Source: Phycisphaerae bacterium
Lineage (GTDB): Bacteria; Planctomycetota; Phycisphaerae; UBA1845
Direction: 5' to 3'
NCBI GenBank assembly: GCA_029260235.1
Contig: JAJDDP010000112.1
Location: 1-59,243, forward strand
Length of the DNA: 59,243 nucleotides
Shown here: in pieces, positions 21,718 to 50,803 of the stretch
How positions within the stretch are numbered: the first letter of the stretch is position 1
Layout of the letters: each line of letters begins with the position of its first letter
Made by a program: the position numbers and the translations under genes
The notes under the pieces: generated by a model
The model's input: the letters and a program-made list of their open reading frames with translations, nothing else
Told to the model about the DNA's origin: nothing
Databases searched by the model: none

Positions 21718-23979
21718 CTAACCGCGATAGTAACCCCGAATTATCTCGCTGGCCTTATTGTTGGACAGGTCGAGGGCCCCCAACGCCTGGCTGGCTGCTG
21801 AACGCATGACCAGGTCAGCTTCGGTGCGGGCTAGGTTCAACACTTTTGAAACGCGATCATCATCCAACTGGTTGCCGAATACTTTGGCGGATGTTGCCAA
21901 GGTATCGAAGGCGATGAGCCGTAGCGTTTCGGAGTTGGCGTCAAAGAGTGCCGCGTCAGCCACCGCTCGCTGAGCGCCGCTGGTTCCAATGAGCGAGAGC
22001 ACAGCCAAGCAGCGCGTCTGCAATTCTTCATCCCCAGAGCCAGCGGCTTCGATAAGCGCGTCTTGGGCACGGGCGTGATCCAAGGCTGTCCGACCGTGAA
22101 TTGCCACGCGGCCCAGGGCGTCGGCAGCTTCCAGGGCCAAGCTTGATGCCAATGCCGGGTCTAGGGTCGTCCCGCCCGAACCGGCCTGTATCTGGGCTGC
22201 CAAGTCGATCAGCTCCGAGCCCGAGGCGCCGGCATCGACGACTCGCACGGTTGAAAACGCTGCTGCCATCTGGCTCGCCAGCGAGTGACCGCCATCCTTG
22301 ACCAGAATGACAATCGGTGTCTGTGCGAAGTAGAACTCCCGCTGCAGAGCTTCAACGGCAGAAGCCAAGCCCGGGGCTTCGATGTCGGTCGAGAGGAAGA
22401 AAGCGGATACGCCGTCCAACTCACCCCGCGCCCGGGACAACGCCTTGTTGAAGCTGCCCTCAGCGACCACTTTGCTCGACCCGATGCGCAACTCCGACTG
22501 AATGCGGGTCATGCTATCTGAGTCAACATCGACTACGACGAAACGATCACCGCCGTTCTGCACCAGGGCGCCGGCCAAGATGGGTACGATCAGCGGCGCT
22601 CCAGCAAAGCGTGTAGCCGGCAACGCATTGGCCAGTGCCAAGGCAGCCCGAATCCGAACAACCCGATTGGGGAATTCTAGCGCCTGTACTAGAGGCTGCT
22701 TGAAGTCCTCGGTGCCCACCAGCGAAGCTTCGCCCGCCACCGAATGCAAGGCAGCAATGGCGCCCAGTGCAACCTGGGCATCGCGATCCTTGACCGCACG
22801 TTCCAGAACCAGATGGGCATACCGAGCACCTGCCGCCCGCGTGAAGTAGAGGCTTCTCGGGAAATCTTGCTGTTTGGTCGCGTCGGCAAGGTCGCCTTGG
22901 GCTTGCTCGGGGGATTCAACATCCAAGCCCAATCGTGCCTCGCGGCGAATGTTGGCCGCTAACCAAAGGGCGATGGCTTCGTCGCCACTGGGGTCAATTT
23001 GTAGAGACTCTTCGCAGCACCGCATAGCCATGACCTGGCCGAAAATCTGCTGCGGGACGGGCGTAGCCTCGACGAAGCTGGTCTGTTCGTTCCAATACCA
23101 AACGTTGGCTGTCTCCAGTCGCGGATCAGCCGCGACCGAGCCTACTTCGTCGTAGTATTGCTGACCAACCAGGTAGAAGCCCGCAGCCGGCGATGTGGCC
23201 AGGGGTCGGCCAAACTTTGCCTCGATCATTTTGCCCGCGTCGACCGCAGCCTTGAGCGTTGCTGGGTTCAAGCCTTCTTGCACGGCTACCTTCTGTAGAT
23301 AGGGCACAGCCTGCGGATACCCGATAGCGCCAAGCACCTGAATCAACTCGACGCGAGTCGCCTCGTCGTTCGTCACCAGAGCAGCCACCAGCGGATTCAA
23401 GGCTGAGCGACCAATCTTTGGCATTGCGGTCAAGATACGCGAATGCAGCTCAGCCTTGGCGGGATCCATCAGCGCATGGATCATCCAGGGCACGGCATAC
23501 TCGCCCGATTCGATGAGACGCTGCGTGGCAAAGTGTTCCATCTGTGGCGGGCCGCCCAACTTTTCGATGCTCAGTTTGATACGCTCGGTGTCCTGGCGGA
23601 CCAGAGACTCGCCTTCTTGAATCAGGCTGATGACCCGCTCGGCGTTCTCTCCGAGTGTCGAATTCCGAATGATAATCAGCAAGGTCTCTAGGCTTCGCGG
23701 ATCCTGATCAGCCACCCGCATCAAGGTGACCGGGTCGAGATCAGGGTGGCCGAGCAAGCTCTGGGCAAACTGATCCGCCTGATCGAACTGCCCGACCCGC
23801 GCATAGTGCATGAAGTCTCCGTACAGCGACGCGACGGTAGGCCCATCGGCAGAGCCGCCCGACTGGGCAATGACCGGCGACGTGGCAAGCAACAGTGCAA
23901 ACGAGACAGCCACAATCGCTGAACGAGCGGAGTCAATCTTTAAGATGCCATAATGAGCACGATGCATTGGATTCTCCAA
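21718..23979 (-). CDS. Large secreted HEAT/PBS-lyase-repeat protein (hypothetical).
   Basis: Signal peptide AIVAVSFALLLATSPVIAQ. Repeated alpha-helical HEAT-like units (LNPLVAALVTNDEATRVELIQVLGAIGYPQAVPYL; RVVRIRAALALANALP; RCLAVLSLIGTSGAQRA). Confidence 0.55.
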   Translation of the reverse strand: MENPMHRAHYGILKIDSARSAIVAVSFALLLATSPVIAQSGGSADGPTVASLYGDFMHYARVGQFDQADQFAQSLLGHPDLDPVTLMRVADQDPRSLETLLIIIRNSTLGENAERVISLIQEGESLVRQDTERIKLSIEKLGGPPQMEHFATQRLIESGEYAVPWMIHALMDPAKAELHSRILTAMPKIGRSALNPLVAALVTNDEATRVELIQVLGAIGYPQAVPYLQKVAVQEGLNPATLKAAVDAGKMIEAKFGRPLATSPAAGFYLVGQQYYDEVGSVAADPRLETANVWYWNEQTSFVEATPVPQQIFGQVMAMRCCEESLQIDPSGDEAIALWLAANIRREARLGLDVESPEQAQGDLADATKQQDFPRSLYFTRAAGARYAHLVLERAVKDRDAQVALGAIAALHSVAGEASLVGTEDFKQPLVQALEFPNRVVRIRAALALANALPATRFAGAPLIVPILAGALVQNGGDRFVVVDVDSDSMTRIQSELRIGSSKVVAEGSFNKALSRARGELDGVSAFFLSTDIEAPGLASAVEALQREFYFAQTPIVILVKDGGHSLASQMAAAFSTVRVVDAGASGSELIDLAAQIQAGSGGTTLDPALASSLALEAADALGRVAIHGRTALDHARAQDALIEAAGSGDEELQTRCLAVLSLIGTSGAQRAVADAALFDANSETLRLIAFDTLATSAKVFGNQLDDDRVSKVLNLARTEADLVMRSAASQALGALDLSNNKASEIIRGYYRG

Positions 23980-24641
23980 GCGGAAAGTTCAGGAAGCCTC
24001 CCGATCGCCGAAGATCAGCCATGCGTAGGCAAGCCGCGTCCCAGGCCAAGCAGACCCAAGCCGCACCACCACCGCAATCTGCGATCCATCCGCAAACCGG
24101 CAGAACAGCAGTATAGGATACCCATAAACGACGTCAACGCTCCGCTGACGCCCGCCCCATTTATGCCGGGCGGACGTACCGGGTGGTCCGACGCGATGAA
24201 AATAGCGGGTTGCTGCTTGCAGGCTGCTACGAGGCGAAAGAGCCTTTCGTCATTCCCGCCCGCGCGGAAATGACGGGCTTCAACATTGACAAATGGCACA
24301 CGTGGCAAGCCTGAACGACATTGGCCTAGAACGAGATTGAGATGAGGTAGGACTCCGCGAAGACTCGCTCGCCGCCGTCAGCCTACGGAGTGGATTGTAG
24401 ATTTGGTGTCTGTTAGGGCGGAGAGGCCATACGGGCAAGGTCCGATGGAGACCCACCTGCCCACCCAGTAACCAATATTGTGGCAAGAACTGGCTTTGGG
24501 GTTTGAGCAGCTGCGTCATCCAAGAAGCGATTAATCGACTAACCTACTCGTTGGCCCATTCGCCCTGCGGGCATCGTTCGTTGCTCAACAGGTTGAATCT
24601 GGCGACTGGCGGGAGCGGTCATCCCTGCTGCCGAGGCGGGA

Positions 24642-25184
24642 TTGACTCAAGATTTGCCTATCTTCTTCGCAGATCGAAGGTCCAGTCCGATCATGCACGA
24701 TTGGCACGGTGACGAGAAGACCATCTGTCCGCCTGTCTATTGGGATATCGCCATTGGCAGCGGCGCGTGTGGCCTGGGGTGTCGAGGGTGTTACCTTCTG
24801 GGCACCTTCCAAGGAATGCGCGATCCGCATCAACCTCTCCTCTATGAGAATGCAGCCTTCTTCTGGAATGCCGTTCGTCGGTGGCTCATCTCGCCGCGCC
24901 GGCGTGCGTGCCACACGCTAGGCACCTTTCGCGAAACCCGTGCGAGCCTGGACTATTGGCGACGGCACTGGAACCTTCCAGCTATGGAGTGGCGACCCGA
25001 GACCCTTCAACGTGACGGAACCCACCGACACACACCGGTTGCCTATCGTGTCATGACCTATGAAGCAATCGCTGCCCTGTGCGCCGAGTTCTTCTCCAGC
25101 ACAGTCGTTTCACTCTGCGAAGAGACGACGGAGCTTCGCCGCCTGTCAAAGCTAACATCAGGCTCATGTGATTGTGTGCGGTGA
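24642..25184 (+). CDS. Questionable ORF (180 aa) with a CGLGCRGC (C-x3-C-x2-C) motif. It may be a remnant of a radical-SAM-like gene, or non-coding.
   Basis: It is the only sizeable ORF in a 1.3 kb stretch with weak coding signal. No RBS. The C-terminal half is Arg/Trp-rich and low-complexity. Confidence 0.2.
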   Translation: MTQDLPIFFADRRSSPIMHDWHGDEKTICPPVYWDIAIGSGACGLGCRGCYLLGTFQGMRDPHQPLLYENAAFFWNAVRRWLISPRRRACHTLGTFRETRASLDYWRRHWNLPAMEWRPETLQRDGTHRHTPVAYRVMTYEAIAALCAEFFSSTVVSLCEETTELRRLSKLTSGSCDCVR

Positions 25185-25277
25185 GACCTGTGCCCTGGCA
25201 GGATCCGGAATGCTCGAATGCAGGGAACCCTGAAGTCGTGGCGAGATCAAGTTCGCTGTATCGAAGTTGCCGACCCT

Positions 25278-25655
25278 CTATTGGTCAGACTTATCGCCCT
25301 GCTCAGATGCCCCCAGAGCCGACTGCCCGCGGTCGGCCTCTACGATGGCCAAGTGGCGCACCAGCATGGTCAATTCGCGGCGAAGGTGTCTTAGGCGAAT
25401 ATAGACCATCGAGAACCCTACCAGCATAGCCAGGGCGGTGGCATAGAGCAGCAGATTCGCCCCGCGCCCCAGGCCAAAGAACTGGGCGATGCGGGTAGTC
25501 GCATCGGGCCATAGAATTGCGCAACCAGCCACAAACCAGACTACTGCCGACGCCAGCCCTTCGCGGCGGGTCGACCAACCCCGGTGGGCGGCTAGCAAAC
25601 TCATGAAAAACAGCAGGGCAGCCAACCCTACGAAGAGAAACTGAAACAGGTTCAT
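25278..25655 (-). CDS. DUF2304 family small membrane protein (partner of polyprenyl-phosphate glycosyltransferases).
   Basis: Three to four TM helices (FLFVGLAALLFFMSLLA; AVVWFVAGCAILW; LLLYATALAMLVGFSMVYI). The start overlaps the upstream GT2 stop (ATGA). GT2+DUF2304 adjacency is a known conserved pairing. Confidence 0.65.
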   Translation of the reverse strand: MNLFQFLFVGLAALLFFMSLLAAHRGWSTRREGLASAVVWFVAGCAILWPDATTRIAQFFGLGRGANLLLYATALAMLVGFSMVYIRLRHLRRELTMLVRHLAIVEADRGQSALGASEQGDKSDQ

Positions 25656-26374
25656 CGCATCACCCTCCCGACGAGGTAGTGGAACACAATGCGCAGCGCA
25701 CCACGCGAAGATTGGCCCTTGGCCAGCGAATGTTCGGTGTATCTAATCTGAACAGGGATCTCTTTGAAGGTCAGCCCCGAGTGGGCAACCTGATCGATCA
25801 GCTCGCTGGCATGGGCCATCCGGTCCAGCGTGATGTCGATCTTCTTGGCTGCTTTCCGAGAAAACGCCCGCAGCCCATTGTGGGCGTCGGTCAGGTTCAC
25901 TCGATTTACCGCACGCGTAAACAAGACAGCCAACTGCAAGGTAATGCGGCGCGACCTGGGCATGTCGATGGTCTCGCCCAAGAATCGAGAGCCAAGAACA
26001 ATCTCGCATTCACCCCGATGAATCGGTTCGACCAGCGCCCAGATGTCCTCGACACGGTGTTGCCCATCGCCGTCGAAGGTCACGACGAACCGCGCTCCCC
26101 TACGAAGGGAGAATTCGATGCCCGTCTGAAGCGCTGCTCCTTGCCCTCGGTTGATAGCGTGACGAAGGGCGAAGCCGGTGTGTTGCTTGGCTATTTCATG
26201 CGTCTCGTCCGAAGAGCCGTCATCGACCACCACGACATGTGGATAGATAGCCCGAACCGCTTGGATCACCTCGGCGAGGCACGGGCCTTCGTTGTAGGCG
26301 GCGATGACCACGAACACATCGCGGGCGACTTCCGGGGGTGGGCTGCTTGGATTCTTCGGGGTTTCGCCGCTCAT
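25652..26374 (-). CDS. GT2 family glycosyltransferase, dolichyl/polyprenyl-phosphate mannose (or glucose) synthase-like (DPM1/Ppm1-like), soluble catalytic domain.
   Basis: DVFVVIAAYNEGPCLAEVIQAV..VVVVDDGSSDETHEIA (DxD), RGQGAALQTG and FVVTFDGDGQH motifs. 240 aa with no TM segment. Confidence 0.8.
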   Translation of the reverse strand: MSGETPKNPSSPPPEVARDVFVVIAAYNEGPCLAEVIQAVRAIYPHVVVVDDGSSDETHEIAKQHTGFALRHAINRGQGAALQTGIEFSLRRGARFVVTFDGDGQHRVEDIWALVEPIHRGECEIVLGSRFLGETIDMPRSRRITLQLAVLFTRAVNRVNLTDAHNGLRAFSRKAAKKIDITLDRMAHASELIDQVAHSGLTFKEIPVQIRYTEHSLAKGQSSRGALRIVFHYLVGRVMR

Positions 26375-26670
26375 CTTCTCCCAATCATGCGTTCATTTGC
26401 TTCGGATCGTGTTCCAAGGCCGATCCAGCCTCCTATCCTATCCATCGTTCCGCCGTCCTTCCAGCAAAGGCCCATAACCCACCGATGGCGATCATGGTAA
26501 CTCAGCTATCGAGCTTCACACAAAAGGCCGATGCCTGATGAGATTGGTGGGCCTCCAGGGTTGATCCATTCGTGCGAGTGGACTACTCATAGCGGACGTT
26601 TCGGTGGCATAGCATGGCCTCTGGCGGATGCCGCTATCCTGCCACAGGCTTAGCCCGTGAAGGAATCGCG

Positions 26671-29085
26671 ATGTCGCGTAGAAAAAAGCACGACAAACCA
26701 GCGGTCGAGGAGGCTCTTCCTCAGGGAATTGAAGCTCCATGGTGGCTGCCACTACTGATTGTGGCGGCTGGGCTGATTGCCTACGCCAACAGCTTCGCAG
26801 GCCAATTCATGCTGGACGACGTCAAGGAGATTTGGCTAAACACCAAGATCCAATCGCTGACGCCGATAACCGATCTGCTTTTCCACCAACGCAGACCAGT
26901 GGTCGCCCTGACGCTGGCATTGAACTATGCGGTCGGGGGCACGAAGGATCTTGAAGGCTATCACGTCGTCAACCTAGCCGTCCATCTGATGGCAGGCTTG
27001 GTGCTGTTCGGCTTGGTTCGTCGCACATTGTTGCTTGATCGATTCAAGAAGCTTGACCCCCGCTCCGCACCTTGGATCGCTGCAGCCGTCGCGGTCTCGT
27101 TCGTGGTACATCCGCTCCAAACGCAGTCGGTGACCTACTTGATCCAACGGGCAGAGTCGATCATGGCCCTGTTCTATCTGCTCACCATCTATTGCGTATT
27201 GCGAAGCCATGGATCCATGCGTTCCACAGCGTGGTACGCAGCCGCAGTGTTTTGTTGCGGGCTGGGGATGGCCAGCAAAGCCGTCATGGTGACTGCCCCG
27301 GTCATGGTGTTCCTGTTTGATGCAATCTTCCTATCCCGCTCTTGGCTTGAGCCGATTCGACGACGTTGGCCCTTGTATGCTGGCTTGGCCGCCACCTGGT
27401 TCGTGCTGGTTGGGACTGGGGTTGTGGGGGGCGTTCTTAGTCAAACGCCTTCCGCCACCAATACCGTTGGGTTCTCCTATACAGGGGCGACGCCGCTGGA
27501 ATACGCCCTGAGCCAACCTAAGGTCGTTCTCCGCTACCTATCGCTAAGTTTTTGGCCTGCAGGTCAGTGCTTGGACTACTCTTGGCCCGTCGCTTCTAGC
27601 CCGGCGGATTACGCCGTGCCGCTGCTTTTTCTAAGCCTGCTGCTTGGCGGAACACTTCTGGGCCTACTCAAACGATCCTGGGTGGGTTTTTGCGGGGCTT
27701 GGTTCTTCTTGATTCTCATGCCCACTTCGAGCTTCATTCCCATCAAGGATGTCATCTTCGAGCACCGTATGTACTTGCCTTTGGCTGCGGTCATCGTGTT
27801 GGTGGTTCTAGGTGCGCGGAAGATTCTGAGTTCAATGCTCGCCCCGATTGTGGTTGACGCGCAGTCGCGCCTCTACGTCTCCATTGGCATAACCCTGGTG
27901 GCCTCGGGTTCCTTGGCTGTCGTCAGTCTAGTCAGGAACAACCTCTACGCAGGGCGGGTGCAGATGTACAACGATGTCGTGCAAAAGTACCCACTCAACA
28001 TCAGGGCGTGGAATAACCTGGGGACGGCTTACCGCACCAAGAGTGCCAAAGATGAAGCCTTTGAAAAATACCGGCGGAAATTTCCGGGCAAAACGCAGGC
28101 GGAATTCAGGCAGATGCTGACCGACAAAGCCTTGTCCGCCTACAGCAAAGCGATCGAAATCGATCCCGAATTCGCGTCGGCATTGGCCAACATCGGATCC
28201 GTCCTCGAAGCCCGCCGACAGTTCCCAGAGGCTATGTTGTACTACCAGCGGGCCTTGAAAGCTGAACCGCGTGAGGGTGTTCGCCATGCCGCAGTCGGCA
28301 GGCTCGCCTCAAGACAGGGCCAAGGCGAACTCGCCCTTTCTGCACTCAAAAAAGCTATCGCGCTGAAACCCGATGCCTCAGAGTACCAAGTCGCCTTGGC
28401 CGAAGAGTTCGCAGCCCAGGGCAACTTCCAAGAATCAGCTCAGATCTACAAGCAGCTTCATACATCGCTGCCGGATAACAATCTGGTGCTTTACAAGTTA
28501 GGAATGGCCCTTCAGCAGGCGGGCCACTACCAGCAAGCGGTGGATGTGCTTACTGATTTGCTCGCCCGGGAACCAGATCACTTCGATGCCCGGGTCGATC
28601 TAGGCCTGACCATGATTCGGATGGGGAATCCACAGAAGGGCATTGAAACCTATCGGGAGGTGCTGCGGGCCAAACCCGATCATGCACCTGCTCACTACAA
28701 CCTCGGATTGATCCTCCAACGTTCTGGGGATTTGGTCGAAGCCGAACAGGAATACCGAGCCGCGATGGAGGCGGATCAAGACCACGTCGATGCGATTTGC
28801 AACCTCGGTGTTGTGCTCAAGGAGCAGGGACGGATTGAGGAGGCTGAGGCAAGCTACCGAAGCGTCTTGATGAGGGATGCCAGGCACGTTCTCGCCCATT
28901 ACAATCTGGGGATCCTCTTGCATGAACGCGGGGATCTGCTGGAAGCTGCTGAACACTACCAAGCGATCCTGGCCATTGATCCGGCCCATCAGCAAGCCCA
29001 GAACATGCTCGGCTTCCTCCGCAGGCGACAGCAGAGAGAGGCGCAGCCGGCGGCGAAATCGCCCGACAATTCTGCAGTGCGTTGA
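26671..29085 (+). CDS. TMTC/PMT-like GT-C membrane domain (DUF1736/PMT_2-type, about 11 TM) fused to a C-terminal TPR repeat domain. Putative protein O-glycosyl (mannosyl) transferase.
   Basis: Start at MSRRKKHDK (ATG 26671, AGGA RBS). First periplasmic loop YANSFAGQFMLDDVKEI carries the acidic DD motif of GT-C enzymes. There are several hydrophobic helices through about residue 430, then at least 9 TPR units (AWNNLGTAYRTK, ALANIGSVLEARRQFPEAMLYYQRAL, AHYNLGLILQRSGDLVEAEQEYRAA, ...). The architecture matches eukaryotic TMTC1-4. Confidence 0.75.
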   Translation: MSRRKKHDKPAVEEALPQGIEAPWWLPLLIVAAGLIAYANSFAGQFMLDDVKEIWLNTKIQSLTPITDLLFHQRRPVVALTLALNYAVGGTKDLEGYHVVNLAVHLMAGLVLFGLVRRTLLLDRFKKLDPRSAPWIAAAVAVSFVVHPLQTQSVTYLIQRAESIMALFYLLTIYCVLRSHGSMRSTAWYAAAVFCCGLGMASKAVMVTAPVMVFLFDAIFLSRSWLEPIRRRWPLYAGLAATWFVLVGTGVVGGVLSQTPSATNTVGFSYTGATPLEYALSQPKVVLRYLSLSFWPAGQCLDYSWPVASSPADYAVPLLFLSLLLGGTLLGLLKRSWVGFCGAWFFLILMPTSSFIPIKDVIFEHRMYLPLAAVIVLVVLGARKILSSMLAPIVVDAQSRLYVSIGITLVASGSLAVVSLVRNNLYAGRVQMYNDVVQKYPLNIRAWNNLGTAYRTKSAKDEAFEKYRRKFPGKTQAEFRQMLTDKALSAYSKAIEIDPEFASALANIGSVLEARRQFPEAMLYYQRALKAEPREGVRHAAVGRLASRQGQGELALSALKKAIALKPDASEYQVALAEEFAAQGNFQESAQIYKQLHTSLPDNNLVLYKLGMALQQAGHYQQAVDVLTDLLAREPDHFDARVDLGLTMIRMGNPQKGIETYREVLRAKPDHAPAHYNLGLILQRSGDLVEAEQEYRAAMEADQDHVDAICNLGVVLKEQGRIEEAEASYRSVLMRDARHVLAHYNLGILLHERGDLLEAAEHYQAILAIDPAHQQAQNMLGFLRRRQQREAQPAAKSPDNSAVR

Positions 29086-29153
29086 TCTCGGACATCGGTA
29101 AGCGAAGCCACAGGGGATAAGTCCTGTCGAATACTAGCCAACCACGGGTTAGT

Positions 29154-30161
29154 CTGGTCATACCAGGGCGGAATTGCGCATCCACGCTCCGGCAATGCCT
29201 GTCTGCCGTTGTACCCATTCTTGACCAGCCCGAGAGTTGTTTGGGCGAAATCATCTTTGTGGACGACGGTTCGGATGACCAAACGACCGACATCGTGGCG
29301 GAGTTTCCGGTTTCCTGCCTGCCAAGCAGTGATCGAGGCCCTGCCGCCGCCCGGAATACAGGCTGGCAAGCCGCTCGATTTGAACTGGTATGGTTTGTCG
29401 ATTCAGACTGTGTCGCCCATGCAGATGCACTGGCCCGATTGCTTCCCCACATGGATGATCCCAAGGCCGGCGGCGTGAGCGGTAGCTACGGCATCATGAA
29501 TCCAGATTCTCTGCTCGCCTGCCTGATCCACGAAGAAATCATCGAGCGCCACTTGCAGATGCCCTTGAAGGTAGATTTCTTGGCTACGTTCAATGTGCTC
29601 TATCGCCGCGACGTGCTGGAATTGGTGGGCGGGCTTGATGAGCGGTACCTCAAAGGACAAGATGCAGAGCTATCATTCCGGGTTACCGAGCAGGGCTACG
29701 ACCTTCGGTTTGAGATTCAATCCCTGGTCAAGCACTTTCATGCTACGCATTGGCTGCGCTACTTCCGCACGCAGCGGCACCAGGGTTATTGGCGTGTTTT
29801 CCTGCACATGAATCATCGAGGCCATTCCTCCGGGGATTCTTACAGCAGTTTGATCGACCACATTCAGCCGCCTTTGGCTATGCTTTCGTTGGGATCGTTG
29901 GCGTTACTGGCTTGGCCTAGTTGGCGCTGGACAGCTATGGTTCCGTTTGCGCTGTTGATGCTGGCGCAGCTTCCCATGACCGGGCGACTGCTCTCTCGCC
30001 TGCGGCAAAGCAAGTACGCGATGTTTGCTCCGATGAGCGTTCTTCGGTCATACTGGCGCGGCTTGGGGATGTCGCTTGGTGTACTCAAATACACGGCTGA
30101 GCGGTTGTCTGGAGCGGATGATCTGAACAAGGGCGGAGACCCCGCCGGCCAAGACCAATGA
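29154..30161 (+). CDS. GT2 family glycosyltransferase with C-terminal membrane anchor (GtrB/ArnC/DPMS-like polyprenyl-phosphate sugar transferase). The start codon is unresolved.
   Basis: Conserved N-terminus SLVIPGRNCASTLRQCLSAVVPILDQPESCLGEIIFVDDGSDDQT, then VWFVDSDC (DxD) and two C-terminal TM helices. The in-frame ORF opens at 29121 after a TAA. No ATG/GTG/TTG lies upstream of the TTG at 29241, which is downstream of the conserved VIP strand. 29154 is a CTG just before VIP. Confidence 0.65.
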   Translation: MVIPGRNCASTLRQCLSAVVPILDQPESCLGEIIFVDDGSDDQTTDIVAEFPVSCLPSSDRGPAAARNTGWQAARFELVWFVDSDCVAHADALARLLPHMDDPKAGGVSGSYGIMNPDSLLACLIHEEIIERHLQMPLKVDFLATFNVLYRRDVLELVGGLDERYLKGQDAELSFRVTEQGYDLRFEIQSLVKHFHATHWLRYFRTQRHQGYWRVFLHMNHRGHSSGDSYSSLIDHIQPPLAMLSLGSLALLAWPSWRWTAMVPFALLMLAQLPMTGRLLSRLRQSKYAMFAPMSVLRSYWRGLGMSLGVLKYTAERLSGADDLNKGGDPAGQDQ

Positions 30162-30192
30162 CCCGCACATTGATGCAATAGGAGTAGCCCGC

Positions 30193-32010
30193 GTGTATGC
30201 CTCGCTTCCTTTCTGGTTCGCCCTAGCCATCCCGGGTTACGTCATCATCCGGCTTTTCTGCAAGGATGAATTGGAATCAGGCCTGCTGGGCACATTCGGT
30301 CTTTCTTATGTGGCTGTCCTCGGTGTGTTGACGCCGGTATCGCTCGTCTGCTACTGGTTCGAGCTGCCCGTGGGCGTCTTCTCAGCCGCATGCGTACTCC
30401 TTGTTCTGGCGAGCCTCTTTGAAATCACTCGGCGCAAGTGGTGGTTTGACTTGGCTAAGCTGGGCGTGGCTGCGCTGTCGATCGAGCTGTTGATCATCCT
30501 TGTCGATGCGATCATGGGGGCACGTACGGGAGGATTCTTGGGCGGAGACAGCCGCGTCCATCTCGCCCGCGTTCGGTTCTTGCTGGATCATGGATTCTGC
30601 AATTACGATCCTTATGTGGGTGCTCCATCGTTCTTCCCCACGTATCACACCAACATTCTGCATGCCCTCTATGCAGCCTGCTCTCAGATCACCTCGGTCC
30701 ACTACATCGATGCATGGTATGCCAGCTTGGGCTGGGGAAAGGTGATGATCGCATCGGGAGCCTACTACATGGCTTGGTGCGTCTTTGGGAATCGCTGGGC
30801 TGCCTGGGCGGCGGCAGTGTGCGTGGTGGCGACGTACGCTCCCATTCCCTTTGTCATCTACCCCAACAAACTGGCTCCGCTCTGGCTGGTTCCATGCATG
30901 ATCGGCGTGGCCGTTCGATTGTTGGACCGCCATCTTGGTTGGCAAGGTGTAGCCCTGCTTGGGATCGGCTCTTTGCTATTGGGCCAGGCACATGGCTTGT
31001 ACGCTGGTTTTGCGGCTGTCTTGTTCCTGCCTCTCCTGGCAGGCGCCGCCTTGTGGCACCTGCTGAGAGATCGACGCCACTGGATTAAGCCCAGCGTAGC
31101 TGCCTTGGCGGTTACGATTGGCGTGGCCTTCCCCATGACCTCGCGGGCACACTCTAGGCCCAAGGAGCCCAGAGCCTCAACTCAGCAAGTCACCGTCGAG
31201 AGTCAATCGAGCGATTTCATCCGGTTTGAAAACGGCTGGAAAATGGTCAACCTCAATCCCCAAGGCCAATGGTGGCGCAAGATTATCCAGTTGGGTGCGA
31301 TTGGCATTGCCCTGCTCACCTGCCGCAGGAAGCAAGTGGCCTTCGTTGTCGCCATCGAAGTCGTCGCCATTGCCATTCTCTATGCCCCGCCTTTATGTAC
31401 GATGGCCATTCACTATTTGGGCGCCGAGTGGGTTGTGTCCAGACTTGGATTCGCCATCAGCGTGAGCACCCTGATCCTCTTGCCGGGGGCGGTCACATTA
31501 CTGTTGGCCAACCGCTTCAAGAATAGATGGGCACAAAGCCTGATCAGTGTCGTGCTCTTTGTAGCTGCCGCATTTCATGGGGCTACTTCCGATTACTATT
31601 CTTGGAAGAATTACGGGATAGCCATCAAAGCCAAGGTGAACAAGCAGAAACAATCACTCAACTACTTCCACCAGATCCAACCGTTCCTGACCAAACATAT
31701 CCCCGAGGGCAGCGCAGTCTTGGCTGAGGCGGATTACGGGATGTGGCTGGTCTTGCTTCATGACTGCTACATTGTGGCAGCCAAGAGCAGCCAAAACGGC
31801 GTGAATGACCTGACTGAACGTCGGGCAGACCTAGCAGTGCTACTAGCCCCTGGCACTCCATGGATTGATCGGCTCAATCTGCTGAACAAATACGGAGTTT
31901 CCTACCAGGCAAGCTCAGCCACTTCGCGTCCCCAGCCATGGGTCGAGGATCACCGACTGGATTCATGGCAGACAACGGGGTTGACCATAAGCCGCCTCAA
32001 GCTGGATTGA
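30193..32010 (+). CDS. Large polytopic membrane protein (about 12+ TM) with a C-terminal soluble domain. Hypothetical, possibly a GT-C-fold glycosyltransferase or glycan polymerase.
   Basis: Strongly hydrophobic segments through about residue 470. Acidic loop CKDELESG near the N-terminus. Co-oriented and tightly spaced with the two preceding glycosylation genes. Confidence 0.55.
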   Translation: MYASLPFWFALAIPGYVIIRLFCKDELESGLLGTFGLSYVAVLGVLTPVSLVCYWFELPVGVFSAACVLLVLASLFEITRRKWWFDLAKLGVAALSIELLIILVDAIMGARTGGFLGGDSRVHLARVRFLLDHGFCNYDPYVGAPSFFPTYHTNILHALYAACSQITSVHYIDAWYASLGWGKVMIASGAYYMAWCVFGNRWAAWAAAVCVVATYAPIPFVIYPNKLAPLWLVPCMIGVAVRLLDRHLGWQGVALLGIGSLLLGQAHGLYAGFAAVLFLPLLAGAALWHLLRDRRHWIKPSVAALAVTIGVAFPMTSRAHSRPKEPRASTQQVTVESQSSDFIRFENGWKMVNLNPQGQWWRKIIQLGAIGIALLTCRRKQVAFVVAIEVVAIAILYAPPLCTMAIHYLGAEWVVSRLGFAISVSTLILLPGAVTLLLANRFKNRWAQSLISVVLFVAAAFHGATSDYYSWKNYGIAIKAKVNKQKQSLNYFHQIQPFLTKHIPEGSAVLAEADYGMWLVLLHDCYIVAAKSSQNGVNDLTERRADLAVLLAPGTPWIDRLNLLNKYGVSYQASSATSRPQPWVEDHRLDSWQTTGLTISRLKLD

Positions 32011-32171
32011 GGCAGGGCTATTGGGTCTTCTGGCTTGCGCTGCTGCGCCATGCCCCAGCTGCGTTCCACCGAAGAGGTGACGCATGCTTGCCGGCGATCA
32101 CTGGTCTTAACCTCGTCACCCGCAGTGCAGCAATGGCAGGCTAGGTTCCCGCCAAGCTGCTGGGCCAATGG

Positions 32172-35100
32172 CTAACGATTGCTCCCGAAGTTGTTTCCAT
32201 AAATGATGTAGACATCGCCAGTATTGGGCCGCCGGCCTGTCGAGGGATCGGTACCCGGGGTGCCAGGACCTTGCGGCAGGTTCTCGTCGGTGAAATCTGC
32301 CTTGGTATTGCCGATGGCGATATCATCGAAGCCGTCGTTATTGACGTCGCCCAGAAAACCAACGTGGTCTGGCGGCGCCTCTTCGGGCCTGCCTATGACA
32401 TACGGGCTTTGGAAGACGATGCCCGGCAACTCATCAGTGCCGACCAGCGATAGATTGAACGACTGGTTGGTCAGATGTGGTCCGCCGAAGATCAGGTAGA
32501 CCATGCCCATGCGATCCTGGCCACTTGCATCGGTCCGCACCTCGCCCGAGGCTGCGATGAGCAAGTCACCGAACCCATCCTGATTGAAATCGCCCGCACT
32601 GCTGACCGAAGCGCCGGCCCGGTCGCCGATGTTAGAGCCGAAGAAGGCTACGCCTGGTAAGTCGGAAGTGCCGATCTGCGAAATAGTCCGGTCGCCATCA
32701 ATGGTTTGGCCTCCAAACACGACGCCCACAAAACCGTTGTCTACCGGGCAACAGTCGGAGGCTCCGGTCTGCAAGCAATCCAACACTTCCATGTCAAATT
32801 CATCGATTATTCGGTCGTTGTTGTAGTCGAACGCCTTGCACCGATCATCCATGAACACTTCCAAGCCATCGCAAGCCGCGAAGCTGCTGTCGCTCAAGTC
32901 AACAGAATCCACGTCACCGTCGCCGTCGAAGTCAGCCGCACACTGGGTGCGGACCAAACCGCCTGCATCGGCAAACGGCGAGGCGATGGCCAAGTCGCTG
33001 ATCCGATCGCCGTTGACATCGTTGAGCCGTTCTTGCAAATGTCCCAATCGATCATTGGGAGATTCACCTCGGACCCGCAGCATGGGCGGACGCTGGAATG
33101 GATCGTCGGCTAAACCTAGCTGGAAATCTCCGACCGGCACGCGTCCGTAGACCACATAGGATGCGCCGGCATTCTCAGCGGCGCGGTCGTTGAGCGGCGC
33201 ACCACAGGCGATATCCGAGACGCCGTCCAAGTTAAAATCGCCGGCATAGCGGGCTTGGCCCAGGAAGTCGTCCACATCCTCGGCAAAAATCTCGAAGCTG
33301 CCAAATGGGATGATTGTCCCGGGGCGTGATTCAGGGTCCGTCTGATCACAACTCCCGCCAACTGAGTTGTCCATGAGCGGAATTATCGCATTGCCGTCAA
33401 GCGTCTCAGCCTTGTCACGCCATACCCCATTTCCACCGCGTACGACGTCAAGCGAGTCATAGTTAGTGCCCGGGAGCACGATGATGCTGCCCCTGTAGGC
33501 GCGGCTGGCTAGGTGGGTGGAGAAGGGGAAGAAGCCGCCCAGCTCCAGATCCAGGACGTCGCGCTCATTCATCGGTGCCGAGATGATGATCTCGTCGAGC
33601 TGATCGTTATTGATGTCGGGCATGGAATCGACATGCTGGCCGAACATCCCTCTGAGCGGAGGCTGATTCAAGAAAAGGTGATCTACCGCGTCGTACCATC
33701 CTGCCTGGAACCGGCAGCCGCCAATTCGACCAGCCTCATCTGGAGAGCTGGCGAGCTGGGTATTGTCCCCGGTCTCGCTCTCAGCACTTCCGCCGATCAC
33801 TATGGGGCCTTCCTGGCCGACCAGCTCCAGGGAAACGGAAGTGGCTTCGAGGCGATCCGGATTGACAATCCCGTCGTTGTCGCGGTTGTCGCTGTCGATC
33901 AGAGTCACGAAGCCGAGTGCTTCGATGGTGGAATCTGGGTTTCCAACCCCGTCCTCGTCGTCATCAGAGAAGTTGTTCCCAAATGAATCGGGATAGCAGC
34001 CCACCGAATTACCACTCAATCGCCTCGAATAGTCGATTGTCAACGTTGGTCGGTCATCCAAGACGCCGTTAAATTCGCTGGAGCGGGCTTCGCTGTTGTC
34101 GTTGGCGTCGTCATCTGGGACCAAGATCAGCAGGATTTCGTTATTTACGCCGGCGAGTTGACCGTCAATGAGTTTCTGAACCAGCGTCGAGATGTCAACC
34201 GAGGTGGTATCGGCCGTGTCCCCGCTGTAATTGCCCAGATCTTCATCGTCGTAGTCAATGTCGTCATCGATGGCGGGGTTTCCGCCATTCGGTGCGCCGC
34301 CAGTCATCGAGAAGCTGTTGAAGGTGACATTCGATTCGTTGAATGGCGTGAAGCACTCGTGGACGGTCGCGTCGCCGCCGGTGTTTGAGATTCGTACCTC
34401 AAGGTTGGCGCCCAGGTCGGTGACATCCGTGGCATTGTCTGGGATGGTCGCCAGAAGATTGCGAATTCGGATAAGCCCCCACTTGCTACGATTCGGGCCG
34501 TCATTGAGCCAAATGATCCGTTGCTCGGCCCCGAAATTGGTATTGGGCTCTTCGCTGTCGATGTATGTGTCTTCAAACCCCGAGAATCCACTCCCGACGG
34601 CGTCTTCGTCGCCAATAGTGGTCTCCAAACTACCTGCCCGGATTTCGAGAGTGACATCTATCGTGTCCTCGCCAGTGGGGTCCGGCGGATCGTCGCCGGG
34701 GTCATCATCGCGTCCTTGAAAAACGCCGTCCACGTGGGCCAACCCGAACAGGAGATCGGCACGACCGTCGCCATTGAGGTCGGTGACCGTAGCCACATCG
34801 GTAATACCCTGAGTCTGGGGGTTGGAGATGAGGATTGCACTGCCTCGCGGTGGCACTCCTTCAAAGATTACGCCGGGAATGTCCGTGCTGGTACTATTGA
34901 CGCTAATTTGGCCGCCGAATCGACCCTGGTGTCCGTAGATCAGGTACGCTTCGCCGATGTTCCCCTGGTTCCGCGGATTGCCGAACTGGGCTACGAGCAG
35001 CAGGTCGTCGATACCATCGGCATCGAAATCTCGGGCGCTAATCATACGGGAACCCAAATTGGACCCCGGATTGAAACCCTTGAACACCGCACCAAGAAGC

Positions 35101-36062
35101 ACTTGGCCAATCTGGCCCAGATCCACCGTGCCGCTTACCGCCTGACCGACACTAATGGTACCGTTGGCATAGGAATGGAAAGGCTGGTTGCCGCCATCGT
35201 CGATAGTTGCCCGAACAAAGTAGGGCCTGCCGTCAGGCCTGACTTGGATCACCGATAGGTCCACGTCCTCGGTTACCGTGATCGTGTCAAAATCGCCGTC
35301 GTTAATGGTCTGCTGTGACAGGACGATGATTTCGCCGGGCTGAGGGTTCGTGGGATCGTCGTTGGTTGGATCATCGTCGAAATCCAGCAGCACATAGAGC
35401 GTTGCATCGCTATCGGCATCATAGGGGAACAGCGGATCGGGGATGTTCGCTGAAGGCTGAACAGTCACGCTCAGCTCATCTTCTTGGGTGATGCTGAGGT
35501 TGAAGGACGGCGTCAAGACGACGACGGTTGGAGGTTGTGTGGCCGGCTGGAACCCTTCCTCGGTGATGGTGATGACCACGCGGGCAGACTCCGACTCGCG
35601 GACCGTGGCAAAAGCTTGGACTGGGGCGTTGATGCCATCCCTAATCGTGCCGCGCAGGTAATAGCGGCCCGAAGGAATCGCGGACGTCGAGACCTCGAAG
35701 GATTCGGGGTTGGGCTGCAAGCTCGAATCGAGGTCGTCCTCAGGGAGGCCATCCACCAGCGGAATCGCTTGGGCTAGCTCCAGAATATCGACCAACTCGA
35801 AACCGATCAGACCAGATGAGTCCGGGTCGAAATCTGTCCATAAGATGGTAAACTGCCCGCCTTGTTCGACGGCCACGTCCTCGACGGGTGTGGTAATCTC
35901 CAAGAGCGGCGATGTGTTACCTGTGACCCCAGGGCCGGAAATCGGAATGGCTGACTCATTGCCACCGGTGCAGGATATCCCGGCGCCGGCAATCAAGGCA
36001 ACAGCCATCCCAGCGTAGGCTGCGAATATTCGAGTCTTGGGGGTGAAGGTCCGGTCTGCCAT
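32172..36062 (-). CDS. Giant secreted FG-GAP/integrin-alpha-like repeat protein (1296 aa from the chosen start) with many Ca-binding DxDxDG loops.
   Basis: Start at MADRTF (ATG 36062, GGAG 8 nt upstream) with signal peptide AAYAGMAVALIAGAGISC. Many FG-GAP-like units (DFDADGIDDLLLVAQFG, DLNGDGRADLLFG, DFNLDGVSDIACGAP, DVNGDRISDLAIASP, DFNQDGFGDLLIAAS, DVNNDGFDDIAIGN) and a dockerin/EF-hand-like DFDGDGDVDSVDL. Confidence 0.8.
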   Translation of the reverse strand: MADRTFTPKTRIFAAYAGMAVALIAGAGISCTGGNESAIPISGPGVTGNTSPLLEITTPVEDVAVEQGGQFTILWTDFDPDSSGLIGFELVDILELAQAIPLVDGLPEDDLDSSLQPNPESFEVSTSAIPSGRYYLRGTIRDGINAPVQAFATVRESESARVVITITEEGFQPATQPPTVVVLTPSFNLSITQEDELSVTVQPSANIPDPLFPYDADSDATLYVLLDFDDDPTNDDPTNPQPGEIIVLSQQTINDGDFDTITVTEDVDLSVIQVRPDGRPYFVRATIDDGGNQPFHSYANGTISVGQAVSGTVDLGQIGQVLLGAVFKGFNPGSNLGSRMISARDFDADGIDDLLLVAQFGNPRNQGNIGEAYLIYGHQGRFGGQISVNSTSTDIPGVIFEGVPPRGSAILISNPQTQGITDVATVTDLNGDGRADLLFGLAHVDGVFQGRDDDPGDDPPDPTGEDTIDVTLEIRAGSLETTIGDEDAVGSGFSGFEDTYIDSEEPNTNFGAEQRIIWLNDGPNRSKWGLIRIRNLLATIPDNATDVTDLGANLEVRISNTGGDATVHECFTPFNESNVTFNSFSMTGGAPNGGNPAIDDDIDYDDEDLGNYSGDTADTTSVDISTLVQKLIDGQLAGVNNEILLILVPDDDANDNSEARSSEFNGVLDDRPTLTIDYSRRLSGNSVGCYPDSFGNNFSDDDEDGVGNPDSTIEALGFVTLIDSDNRDNDGIVNPDRLEATSVSLELVGQEGPIVIGGSAESETGDNTQLASSPDEAGRIGGCRFQAGWYDAVDHLFLNQPPLRGMFGQHVDSMPDINNDQLDEIIISAPMNERDVLDLELGGFFPFSTHLASRAYRGSIIVLPGTNYDSLDVVRGGNGVWRDKAETLDGNAIIPLMDNSVGGSCDQTDPESRPGTIIPFGSFEIFAEDVDDFLGQARYAGDFNLDGVSDIACGAPLNDRAAENAGASYVVYGRVPVGDFQLGLADDPFQRPPMLRVRGESPNDRLGHLQERLNDVNGDRISDLAIASPFADAGGLVRTQCAADFDGDGDVDSVDLSDSSFAACDGLEVFMDDRCKAFDYNNDRIIDEFDMEVLDCLQTGASDCCPVDNGFVGVVFGGQTIDGDRTISQIGTSDLPGVAFFGSNIGDRAGASVSSAGDFNQDGFGDLLIAASGEVRTDASGQDRMGMVYLIFGGPHLTNQSFNLSLVGTDELPGIVFQSPYVIGRPEEAPPDHVGFLGDVNNDGFDDIAIGNTKADFTDENLPQGPGTPGTDPSTGRRPNTGDVYIIYGNNFGSNR

Positions 36063-36431
36063 CAGAGTTACTCCTAAACGACCAGCCATCCCAACGATCA
36101 TCATCTCAGCCGTGCCATTGCACATTTTTGAGACTAGATCCGTCGCATAAACGGGTGATCCAACCTACTACATAGCTTACCCAGGCCACATCGGCTCAGC
36201 TAAGGACGATGCGGCGAGTCATGCAGAACCAAGCGAGGAAGCAGCGCACGCGCAACAGCTGAAGAAGCCGCCAAATCGCAGGCTCATGCAGCCGAATCAT
36301 AGAAGCGCCTCAGATGTCCCGTCAAGCATCCACTATTTCCCCGACTCTTGCCCAGGAGGCCGAGGCCCAGTCGGCGGGGTCGAACATTCGCCACCAGGGA
36401 CAAATGCTGACAAAACTGGGGAAGAAATGCC

Positions 36432-37332: not shown

Positions 37333-37938
37333 GTGACGGAAATTAAAGCAACGAATATCACATGGCATGAGGGACACGTCGGACGCGAAGAGCGCGAAGG
37401 TATGCTCAAGCAGAAGGGCGCCCTCATTTGGATGACCGGTTTTAGCGGCTCGGGGAAGAGCACCGTAGCCTATACGCTCGAGCATGCCCTCGTTCAGCAG
37501 GGCCGTCTCGCTTATGTGCTCGATGGCGACAACGTCCGCCATGGCCTCAACAAGAACCTGGGCTTTAGCGCCGAGGACCGTACCGAAAACATCCGCCGCA
37601 TTGGTGAAGTCGGAAAGCTTTTCGTGGACGCCGGCATCATCACCATTACCGCATTCATCAGCCCGTACCGCGCTGACCGCGACCAGGTACGCGAGCTGTT
37701 CGGCGCCGACGATTTCTTCGAGATTTTCTGCCACGCACCACTCGATGTCTGCGAAGAGCGTGACCCGAAGGGCCTGTACAAGAAAGCCCGCGCCGGCGAG
37801 ATCAAAGGCTTCACCGGCATTGACGACCCCTACGAGGAGCCGACGAAGCCCGAATTGATCATCCCGACCCACGAGCTATCGCCGCAAGAATCCTCGATCA
37901 AGCTGATCGAAATGCTAGAGGCCAAAGGCAAGCTGTAG
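37333..37938 (+). CDS. cysC: Adenylyl-sulfate (APS) kinase CysC.
   Basis: P-loop GFSGSGKST. LDGDNVRHGLNKNLGFSAEDRTENIRRIGEV and FISPYRADR signatures. GTG start preceded by AGGAAAG. Confidence 0.9.
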   Translation: MTEIKATNITWHEGHVGREEREGMLKQKGALIWMTGFSGSGKSTVAYTLEHALVQQGRLAYVLDGDNVRHGLNKNLGFSAEDRTENIRRIGEVGKLFVDAGIITITAFISPYRADRDQVRELFGADDFFEIFCHAPLDVCEERDPKGLYKKARAGEIKGFTGIDDPYEEPTKPELIIPTHELSPQESSIKLIEMLEAKGKL

Positions 37939-49319: not shown

Positions 49320-50639
49320 CTAGGCCCGAACTATCTTGGACCGCCCTGTCTTGACGGTTGCGGCTGCATTCCGCGTGTCAATGACCAGCTTGGCGTGCTT
49401 GACCAGCCATGCGTAGTCGTAGTCGTCGTGGTCCGTGGCGATGAGCACGCAGTCATACCCAGCCACCATCTTGGCTGACAGCTTCTTGCTCGACATCTTC
49501 AAGTCGTATTCCCGCATCTTGTGGGTCCGCGGGATGTAGGGGTCATTGTAATCAACCTTCGCCCCCCGTTCGGTCAGCAACTCGATCAGCTCTAGCGACG
49601 GAGATTCCCGGCAGTCGTCGATGTTCTTCTTGTAGGCCAGCCCCAGGAGCAGAATCTCGGAACCATTGAGCGGCTTCTTACGATCATTCAGCGCCTCAGC
49701 CGTGCGGGCAACCACATACTCTGGCATCTGCGTGTTGATCTCACCAGCCAGCTCGATGAACCGGGTGGACATCCCCACGCTTCGGGCTTTCCAGGTGAGG
49801 TAAAAGGGGTCGATGGGAATGCAATGGCCGCCCAAGCCAGGGCCGGGATAAAACGGTTGGAATCCGAATGGCTTGGTCGCAGCAGCCCGCACCACTTCCC
49901 ACACGTTGATGTCCAGCTTGTCGAACAGCACCTTCATTTCGTTCATCAAGGCGATGTTGACGCATCGGTAGACATTCTCAAGAATTTTGCACGCCTCGGC
50001 CACATCGCAGCTATCCACTGGTACGACATGGCTGATGGCCGCCGCGTAGAGCGCCGCCGCCAACTTCTTGCTCGCCGGGCCTAGACCACCCACGACTTTG
50101 GGAATGGTAGACGTGTTGTAGTCCTTCCGCCCCGGATCCTCTCGCTCGGGAGAATAGGCTAGGAAGAAGTCCTTCTCAGCCTTGAGGCCGCTGCTTTCCA
50201 GGATGGGCTGGACCAATTCGCGTGTAGTCCCCGGATAGGTTGTGCTCTCCAGTACAACCAGCTGACCCGGCTGAAGGTGCTCGGCAATCATCTCTGCCGT
50301 GCTGACCACATAGCTCATGTCCGGGTCACGCGTGTTATTCAGAGGAGTCGGGACGCAGATGAGGATTGCCGAGCACTTGCGAAGGTCGCGAGGATTGGTG
50401 GTCGCTTTGAATGCCTTCTTGGCCACCAGCTCCTTGAGGAGCTTCGATCCAATATGCTTGATGTAGCTCTTGCCGGCGTTGAGCATCTTGACTTTGCTCG
50501 CATCGACATCCAGGCCAACGCAGCGGAAGCCCGCTTGGCAGAAGGTCTGCATCAATGGCAACCCGACGTATCCCATGCCGACGATACCAACGGGGGCTTT
50601 TCGATCTTCGATTCGCTGCACAAGTGTCTTGACGTTCAC
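49320..50639 (-). CDS. UDP-sugar 6-dehydrogenase family protein (UDP-glucose / UDP-N-acetyl-D-glucosamine(mannosamine) dehydrogenase).
   Basis: N-terminal Rossmann VGIVGMGYVGLPL. Catalytic-Cys region GPGLGGHCIPIDPFYL. GTG start at 50639 with a GAAAGGA RBS. The ORF-track start 50678 is 13 codons longer. Confidence 0.8.
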   Translation of the reverse strand: MNVKTLVQRIEDRKAPVGIVGMGYVGLPLMQTFCQAGFRCVGLDVDASKVKMLNAGKSYIKHIGSKLLKELVAKKAFKATTNPRDLRKCSAILICVPTPLNNTRDPDMSYVVSTAEMIAEHLQPGQLVVLESTTYPGTTRELVQPILESSGLKAEKDFFLAYSPEREDPGRKDYNTSTIPKVVGGLGPASKKLAAALYAAAISHVVPVDSCDVAEACKILENVYRCVNIALMNEMKVLFDKLDINVWEVVRAAATKPFGFQPFYPGPGLGGHCIPIDPFYLTWKARSVGMSTRFIELAGEINTQMPEYVVARTAEALNDRKKPLNGSEILLLGLAYKKNIDDCRESPSLELIELLTERGAKVDYNDPYIPRTHKMREYDLKMSSKKLSAKMVAGYDCVLIATDHDDYDYAWLVKHAKLVIDTRNAAATVKTGRSKIVRA

Positions 50640-50803
50640 GCAAGAGATCCTTTCTGAATCCAATGTCAAACAATTCACGGGCTGGGATGATAAGAGGACG
50701 CCTCCCCGGCGTCCATCTTAGACTAGAACCAAACTACCGCGGTCTGGTCGGTGCGGGCGGCGAGCTCAACGGCATCCGCACTAAGGTGGCACAGGTTATC
50801 GGA

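Follow-up and report, generated by a model that had tools for sequence, protein, structure and literature searches.

Several described glycosylation systems resemble a five-gene cluster found at positions 25278..32010 of a 59,243-nucleotide contig from a Phycisphaerae bacterium (Planctomycetota; GenBank assembly GCA_029260235.1, contig JAJDDP010000112.1), the whole of which is referred to below as the window. In the Gac system of Streptococcus and the PpgS/Rv3632/Rv3779 system of Mycobacterium and Corynebacterium, a family 2 glycosyltransferase (GT2) with an adjacent DUF2304 activator makes a polyprenyl-phosphate-linked N-acetylhexosamine (HexNAc), which is used by an external glycosyltransferase of the GT-C class. 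GacJ binds and stimulates GacI, the maker of N-acetylglucosamine-P-undecaprenol (bioRxiv 10.1101/180810), Rv3632 stimulates PpgS, the mycobacterial polyprenyl-phospho-N-acetylgalactosamine (GalNAc) synthase (PMC9671496), and the products of GacI and PpgS are consumed outside the membrane by the GT-C enzymes GacL and Rv3779 (bioRxiv 10.1101/180810; PMC9671496). The animal TMTC1-4 enzymes (CAZy GT105) are GT-C proteins with about 11 transmembrane (TM) helices, a DD motif in the first extracytoplasmic loop and C-terminal tetratricopeptide repeats (TPRs); their donor-binding motifs have been published and prokaryotic homologues mentioned (PMC7801869). TfpW of Pseudomonas aeruginosa, a GT-C needed for pilin glycosylation, is predicted to have 11 TM helices, and both its DDX motif and its C-terminal TPR domain are periplasmic (bioRxiv 10.1101/2020.04.19.049825). 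The cluster in the window is a variation on such lipid-sugar synthase plus GT-C systems, to which a TMTC-like TPR-bearing transferase, a second GT-C enzyme and an auxiliary GT2 are added, and on balance its five genes are predicted to form one periplasmic glycosylation cassette.

A reading of the window from its letters alone (the sequence-only reading) had placed five open reading frames (ORFs) in two divergent units, and all five were recovered at the same positions and on the same strands. On the minus strand, GT2a (25652..26374), a soluble GT-A glycosyltransferase of 240 amino acids (aa), precedes the gene of a small DUF2304 membrane protein of 125 aa (25278..25655); the TGA stop of GT2a overlaps the ATG start of the DUF2304 gene as ATGA, the coupling that had been pointed out before. 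A 296-bp intergenic region (26375..26670), presumed to be a shared promoter region, separates this pair from three genes on the plus strand. These encode a TPR-bearing protein of 804 aa (26671..29085; counted as 805 aa in the sequence-only reading), here called GT-C-TPR, a membrane-associated GT2 of about 345 aa, GT2b (29124..30161), and a predicted second GT-C glycosyltransferase of 605 aa, P5 (30193..32010). The ATG at 26671 is preceded by the Shine-Dalgarno-like GAAGGAA. No sigma-70-like site was found in 26375..26670, and the count of such sites across the whole region is at chance level, as are the promoter and terminator scans; 23500..32500 has no Rfam matches.

The arrangement is conserved in relatives. 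A P5 alignment was compared with metagenome contigs, which gave 26 loci with enough upstream sequence to be informative, and the full order (DUF2304<-GT2a / GT-C-TPR->GT2b->P5) is present in 16 of them. The remaining ten comprise one locus without GT-C-TPR, one without GT2b and eight in which P5 stands alone. With 70% P5 identity as the limit, the complete loci form 9 groups, mostly 28-60% identical to one another and 28-38% to the window, and their GC content ranges from 0.57 to 0.75. FVxDD is preserved in their GT-C members, as is a TPR tail of 130-240 aa in most of these. Because the order is kept in at least 10 divergent lineages (the 9 groups and the window), the five genes are supported as a functional unit. 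The first P5 homologue contexts were solitary and had indicated a lack of conserved order, but this was overturned by the metagenome scan.

Parts of the cluster also recur as sub-modules. The closest GT-C-TPR orthologues, in loci L003 and L004, have the divergent core DUF2304<-GT2a / ->GT-C-TPR without GT2b and P5, while L087 has DUF2304<-GT2a / GT2b->P5, L085 (from the genome of L003) has GT2b->P5->P5->GT2, and L093 likewise carries a four- or two-gene subset. A search with a GT2a alignment recovered 80 loci from many bacterial and archaeal phyla, 36 of them labelled Planctomycetota and 44 from other phyla. The DUF2304 gene lies directly downstream of the GT2 in 71 of the 80, and GT2b homologues accompany the pair in nine. 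GT-C-TPR occurs in the same locus as GT2a, mostly within about 3 kb, in 16/36 of the Planctomycetota-labelled loci and in 0/44 of the others. The neighbours of the pair in other phyla are PMT or PMT_2 GT-Cs that have no TPRs (L029, L043 and L076); in L062 its neighbour is a Wzx-like protein and in L074 a Wzy_C protein. In L006 (1..7087), L009 (64..3980), L010 (2..8025) and L034 (9029..12970), two to four GT-C-TPR genes stand in tandem next to a single GT2a-DUF2304 pair, suggesting that a single donor serves many transferases.

All-vs-all clustering of the loci revealed one further recurrent gene, present in many of them, which encodes a third GT2 distant from GT2b. It lies just past P5 or DUF2304 in L092 (8512..9645), L093 (7213..8301), L095 (7463..8596), L110 (8454..9455) and L112 (573..1820); the window lacks it and has a convergent FG-GAP gene after P5. 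Beside the three-gene core, L003 (3999..4688) and L004 (4478..5164) encode a PEP-CTERM protein of 229 aa ending in PEPGTFALLAAAGLFWRRRRR, which has no counterpart there in the window. PEP-CTERM proteins are exported surface proteins, and those of L003 and L004 could be candidate glycosylation substrates.

The donor module is the part of the cluster most readily compared with characterised enzymes. GT2a matches the Pfam GT2 family (E 4e-23), has no TM segments and contains the motifs VVVDDGS and FDGDGQH (with the DxD), both of which had been recognised in the sequence-only reading. In the NCBIfam ranking PpgS is first with 225.5 bits, far above AglJ (87), a Dol-P-hexose transferase (55) and ArnC (27), and by this ranking GT2a is a predicted PpgS relative of the PpgS/GacI class, not an equivalog. 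Its only sequence match in the PDB is the dolichol-phosphate-mannose (Dol-P-Man) synthase of Pyrococcus (5mlz, E 3.8e-8). The DUF2304 protein matches PF10066 with 59.6 bits (E 4e-16, cutoff 25.5) and shows three hydrophobic segments by hydropathy, predicted to be TM helices, as in a synthase partner of the GacJ/Rv3632 type. With the PpgS match, the DUF2304 partnership, the regular position of DUF2304 behind the GT2 and the Gac and Ppg precedents, the proposal that the two proteins form a putative lipid-linked-sugar synthase pair is well supported. The mannose donor of DPM1/Ppm1 type that had been proposed for them is not favoured by this ranking. Because the nearest characterised relatives of GT2a make HexNAc donors, the sugar is probably a HexNAc rather than mannose.

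In the GT-C-TPR protein, a membrane domain of about 11 TM helices (residues 1-427, 26671..27951) is followed by a C-terminal TPR array (residues 429-791, 27955..29085) of 9-10 repeats and a capping helix. The array is strong in Pfam, and about eight regular and one or two irregular TPRs are seen in the AlphaFold model, in agreement with the at least nine previously counted. The model, built from 41 sequences, has a pLDDT of 90.8 and a pTM of 0.83. Searched at full length against the PDB with Foldseek, it returned TPR proteins only, which gave no information on the membrane domain; the predicted structure of the membrane domain shows the GT-C fold, with Pmt4 and Pmt2 among the best matches. Residues 1-450 have no Pfam or NCBIfam matches, even at E<=10, and sequence and profile searches of the membrane domain against PDB sequences found none. 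Homologues that are 48-54% identical over the membrane domain do match: PMT_2 is recognised in 8 of 20 (best E 1.1e-11), PMT in one, and the homologues P0019 and P0008 exceed the PMT_2/PMT gathering cutoff. The GT-C nature of the membrane domain is supported on these grounds, and so is the sequence-only proposal of an N-terminal GT-C with a DD loop followed by TPRs. Of the PMT_2 or DUF1736 matches that it expected for residues 1-430, those to PMT_2 are seen in the homologues and not in the query.

The motif FMLDDVKEI, which had also been noticed earlier, follows the first hydrophobic helix, and its aspartates (D49-D50, 26815..26820) are invariant in 20-41 homologues; an RP pair, K203 and EHRxY are invariant too. 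Eleven TM helices behind a basic, cytoplasmic N-terminus are consistent with the pattern of helices and the charges of the loops. Because the TM count is odd, the positive-inside rule would place the TPR side in the periplasm, together with the loops that carry DD, K203, D302/W305 and EHRMY.

In this architecture GT-C-TPR resembles TMTC1-4, and the likeness extends to several donor-binding motifs when these are aligned by eye. The DD corresponds to motif M1, R75-P76 in extracytoplasmic loop 1 (EL1) to M2 (SHKSYRP), R160-A-E162 to M3 (RxD) and E364-H-R366-M-Y368 to M7 (ERxxY, EL5), while M4 (KE(T/Q)xxT, EL3) has a counterpart in K203...T208 with Ala in place of the metal-binding Glu. The AVHPIHT of TMTC3 resembles VVHPLQT in GT-C-TPR. 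However, the TMTC_DUF1736 loop domain (PF08409), located between TM7 and TM8, was not detected in residues 1-450 by Pfam at E<=10, and only one of the 20 close homologues matches it, at E=0.1. As the TMTC-specific domain went undetected, the protein is placed in the PMT_2 clan, as a TPR-bearing GT-C, rather than in the TMTC family; of the TMTC match claimed in the sequence-only reading the architecture and motifs stand and the family assignment does not. Unlike the TMTCs, GT-C-TPR is bacterial and periplasmic and shares its operon with GT2b and P5; as its genomic partner is of the PpgS/DUF2304 type and not DPM1, its donor is probably not mannose.

TfpW, a pilin D-arabinofuranosyl (D-Araf) transferase, is likened to GT-C-TPR by its described architecture, not by sequence, and has the cytoplasmic N-terminus and the use of a polyprenyl-P-sugar that are predicted for GT-C-TPR. 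The tfpW gene adjoins the substrate gene pilA and a D-Araf pathway, whereas the cluster in the window has no linked substrate gene and its donor synthase is the GT2 with DUF2304. A comparable logic is found in actinobacterial Ppm1/Pmt and in fungal PMT, where a lipid-P-sugar synthase serves a PMT-clan GT-C acting on secreted proteins, but PMTs carry MIR or WW-like luminal domains and not TPRs, use mannose, and their genes are not clustered in this way. The GT-Cs of the Gac and Ppg systems likewise lack TPRs, and their acceptors are cell-wall polysaccharides.

The membrane domain of GT-C-TPR belongs to a very large family. A word-indexed search gave more than 6,000 matches, mostly named 'tetratricopeptide repeat protein' and from Planctomycetota and Phycisphaerae, and an exhaustive search gave 33,646 clusters at 50% identity with E<=1e-3, 17,003 with E<=1e-10 and 7,237 with E<=1e-30. 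Several paralogues are present per genome.

P5 is polytopic, as had been stated, and its structure model further shows a GT-C fold resembling AglB and AftA, with an alpha/beta C-terminal domain (residues 503-605, 31699..32007). In fold comparison it is as close to the arabinan-priming AftA as to the oligosaccharyltransferases (AglB/STT3/PglB); the sequence identity to these enzymes is 10-12%. No matches to P5 were found in Pfam and NCBIfam, even at E<=10, including STT3 and AftA, or in PDB sequence and profile searches, and no WWDYG-type motif was seen by eye in its C-terminal domain. The family is small (44 clusters, without names), and P5 itself does not match DUF6541 (PF20176, gathering score 29), to which its homologues score weakly (23.7-30.4 bits), one of them passing. 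Profile-profile comparison detected no similarity between P5 and GT-C-TPR, which rules out that they are paralogues, and therefore the cluster encodes two different GT-C enzymes. As two P5 homologues, P0133 (residues 627-748) and P0161, carry C-terminal TPRs of their own, TPRs have within this group become fused to two GT-C scaffolds that are unrelated.

The frame of GT2b is open back to 29121, and its first ATG, GTG or TTG codon is at 29241. The conserved first beta-strand RVSLVIPGRNC is encoded at about 29145..29177, upstream of that codon, the GT2 profile is matched from position 1 only if the ORF is extended to 29121, and orthologues start with MSDERVSLVIPGRNC. From the open frame, the profile coverage and the orthologue N-termini, translation probably begins at 29124 with CTG, a non-canonical codon that lies six bases behind an AGGGGA; the 306-aa public gene call, which starts at TTG 29241, is N-terminally truncated. 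Failing a non-canonical start, either the gene is decaying or its sequence contains an error. GT2b contains DDGS, DSD, QDAEL and QRHQGYWR, the hallmarks of the 'D, D, D, QxxRW' type, and matches Glyco_tranf_2_3 and GT21, with generic GT-A enzymes as its PDB matches. Its best NCBIfam models are MftF and EpsD and not GtrB, ArnC or DPMS. The C-terminal helices are moderately hydrophobic, none exceeding the hydropathy threshold. Of the membrane-anchored GT2 previously described here, the GT2 is confirmed, and both its start, which lies upstream of the first usual start codon, and its anchoring helices differ from that description. Membrane GT2s of the QxxRW class typically act on lipid or polymer acceptors. 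In Corynebacterium glutamicum, an extra GT2 beside ppgS, Cgp_0396, is needed for the same arabinogalactan-modification phenotype.

If the cassette works as proposed, GT2a, held and stimulated by DUF2304 at the cytoplasmic face, would by homology transfer a sugar, probably a HexNAc, from a nucleotide sugar to polyprenyl phosphate, and the lipid-linked monosaccharide would then be flipped across the inner membrane. In the periplasm it would be used by GT-C-TPR, whose DD loop and phosphate-binding residues are predicted to face that side and whose 9-10 TPRs may select or hold the acceptor. P5, the unrelated GT-C with the AglB/AftA-like fold, may be a second periplasmic user of the lipid-linked sugar. 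GT2b, which travels with both sub-modules, would either work on the inner face, readying an acceptor or primer, or add a second sugar, and this step is the least certain. The flow from donor to GT-C is likely to be correct.

Less can be said with confidence about the acceptor. By analogy with TMTC1-4 and TfpW, GT-C-TPR is tentatively assigned to the glycosylation of periplasmic or surface proteins; decoration of an envelope glycan or glycolipid instead is a real possibility, and the lean towards a protein acceptor for the TPR enzyme is slight. In its favour, all characterised GT-Cs with fused TPRs (TMTC1-4, TMEM260 and TfpW) act on proteins, the closest folds include two protein O-mannosyltransferases, Pmt4 and Pmt2, and paralogue expansion, tandem arrays and varied TPR lengths fit many macromolecular acceptors better than a single glycan. 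A cassette acting as a whole on non-protein acceptors is a less probable reading that still carries weight; it would modify lipopolysaccharide (LPS) or lipid A, lipoglycan, or peptidoglycan-linked or capsular polysaccharide, with the TPRs as a periplasmic scaffold, on the model of the glycan- and glycolipid-decorating or -assembling enzymes GacL, Rv3779, ArnT and AftA. TPRs serve as scaffolds in polysaccharide export systems as well. Both characterised GT2 and DUF2304 pairs make HexNAc-P-polyprenol for GT-Cs that modify glycans, not proteins (bioRxiv 10.1101/180810; PMC9671496). The parallel between GT2b and the corynebacterial Cgp_0396, the membership of GT2b in the QxxRW class and the equal likeness of P5 to AftA and to oligosaccharyltransferases point the same way, and the all-vs-all locus clustering found no candidate substrate gene conserved beside the cluster. 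Besides these points, others weigh against the proposed cassette itself: GT2a falls below the PpgS equivalog cutoff (225.5 against 370 bits, NCBIfam NF058614), the GT-C assignment of GT-C-TPR comes from predicted structure and homologues with no direct Pfam or PDB match of the query, GT2b has the least certain role of the five proteins, and the same clustering detected no conserved flippase (GtrA, Wzx or ArnEF-like) in the cluster, where the Gac system has GacK.

Protein O-mannosylation of TMTC/PMT type, the reading originally put forward, with GT2a as a polyprenyl-P-mannose synthase like Ppm1 or DPM1, is improbable. It can draw on the Dol-P-Man synthase as the sole solved sequence relative of GT2a, on the TMTC-like architecture and motifs of GT-C-TPR and on the PMT_2 and PMT matches of its homologues. 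Yet GT2a groups with the GalNAc synthase PpgS at 225 bits, against 55 bits for the Dol-P-hexose transferase model, a grouping that counts against O-mannosylation, and the only synthases known to have DUF2304 partners make HexNAc-P-polyprenol. TMTC_DUF1736 is undetected, the M4 glutamate is replaced by Ala, and the only characterised planctomycetal O-glycan, the GalNAc-rich hexasaccharide of the Kuenenia S-layer O-glycoprotein (PMC5088730), is of the HexNAc/GalNAc type. The idea that a common TPR membrane protein lies by chance beside unrelated envelope glycosyltransferases is hardly credible: chance adjacencies are to be expected from a family of 33,646 clusters with several paralogues per genome, and some P5 homologues are solitary, but the same order and orientation of five genes in nine lineages (28-60% identity) and the window, together with the recurring subsets and the lack of other conserved synteny around the cluster, effectively refutes it.

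A broader reading joins these elements. In it, proteins of Planctomycetota and related groups would be O-glycosylated by a TMTC-like system: one PpgS/DUF2304 synthase would supply a polyprenyl-P-sugar, possibly a HexNAc, each of the expanded and often tandem GT-C-TPRs would use its TPRs to recognise different proteins of the periplasm or surface, and P5 and GT2b would extend the glycan. As a whole this is unlikely. If it were true, the system would be a bacterial equivalent, and perhaps the ancestor, of the animal TMTC1-4 proteins, whose enzymology is still poorly defined and whose genes underlie human disease, and it could explain how surface glycoproteins such as the GalNAc-rich S-layer of Kuenenia are made. 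The searched literature yielded no study of the cassette or of planctomycetal GT-C-TPR proteins and no functional study of the membrane-domain family. The tie of this huge TPR family to a specific donor synthase in a compact, conserved cassette offers a testable route to its function. Were the acceptors proteins, the cassette would be a bacterial analogue of the TMTC pathway and give access to the way in which Planctomycetota build glycoproteins of the envelope and surface; were they glycans, it would represent a new pathway of envelope decoration whose TPR-bearing transferase is unusual.

Two genes around the cluster were compared with the related loci, and neither is conserved with it. A 753-aa HEAT-repeat gene (21718..23979) appeared syntenic with a gene for 730-770 aa in L003 and L004, but phmmer showed the two to be unrelated, so the synteny with these loci is confined to the three core genes. 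No homologue of the FG-GAP gene at 32172..36125 was found in any related locus, and the proposed connection of the cluster to the giant FG-GAP proteins is therefore not supported. The 1.3 kb at 23980..25278 have no convincing gene; an ORF there (24642..25184, plus strand) encodes CGLGCRGC, with a CxxxCxxC like that of radical S-adenosylmethionine enzymes, and has no Pfam or NCBIfam matches, and the region may be a gene remnant. By Pfam annotation, other envelope-related genes of the window lie at 105..2495, 2660..3490, 32172..36125, 37333..37938 and 49320..50678, and their products comprise two giant FG-GAP proteins, a type IV pilin-like protein with an N-methylation motif, an APS kinase and a UDP-glucose/GDP-mannose dehydrogenase.

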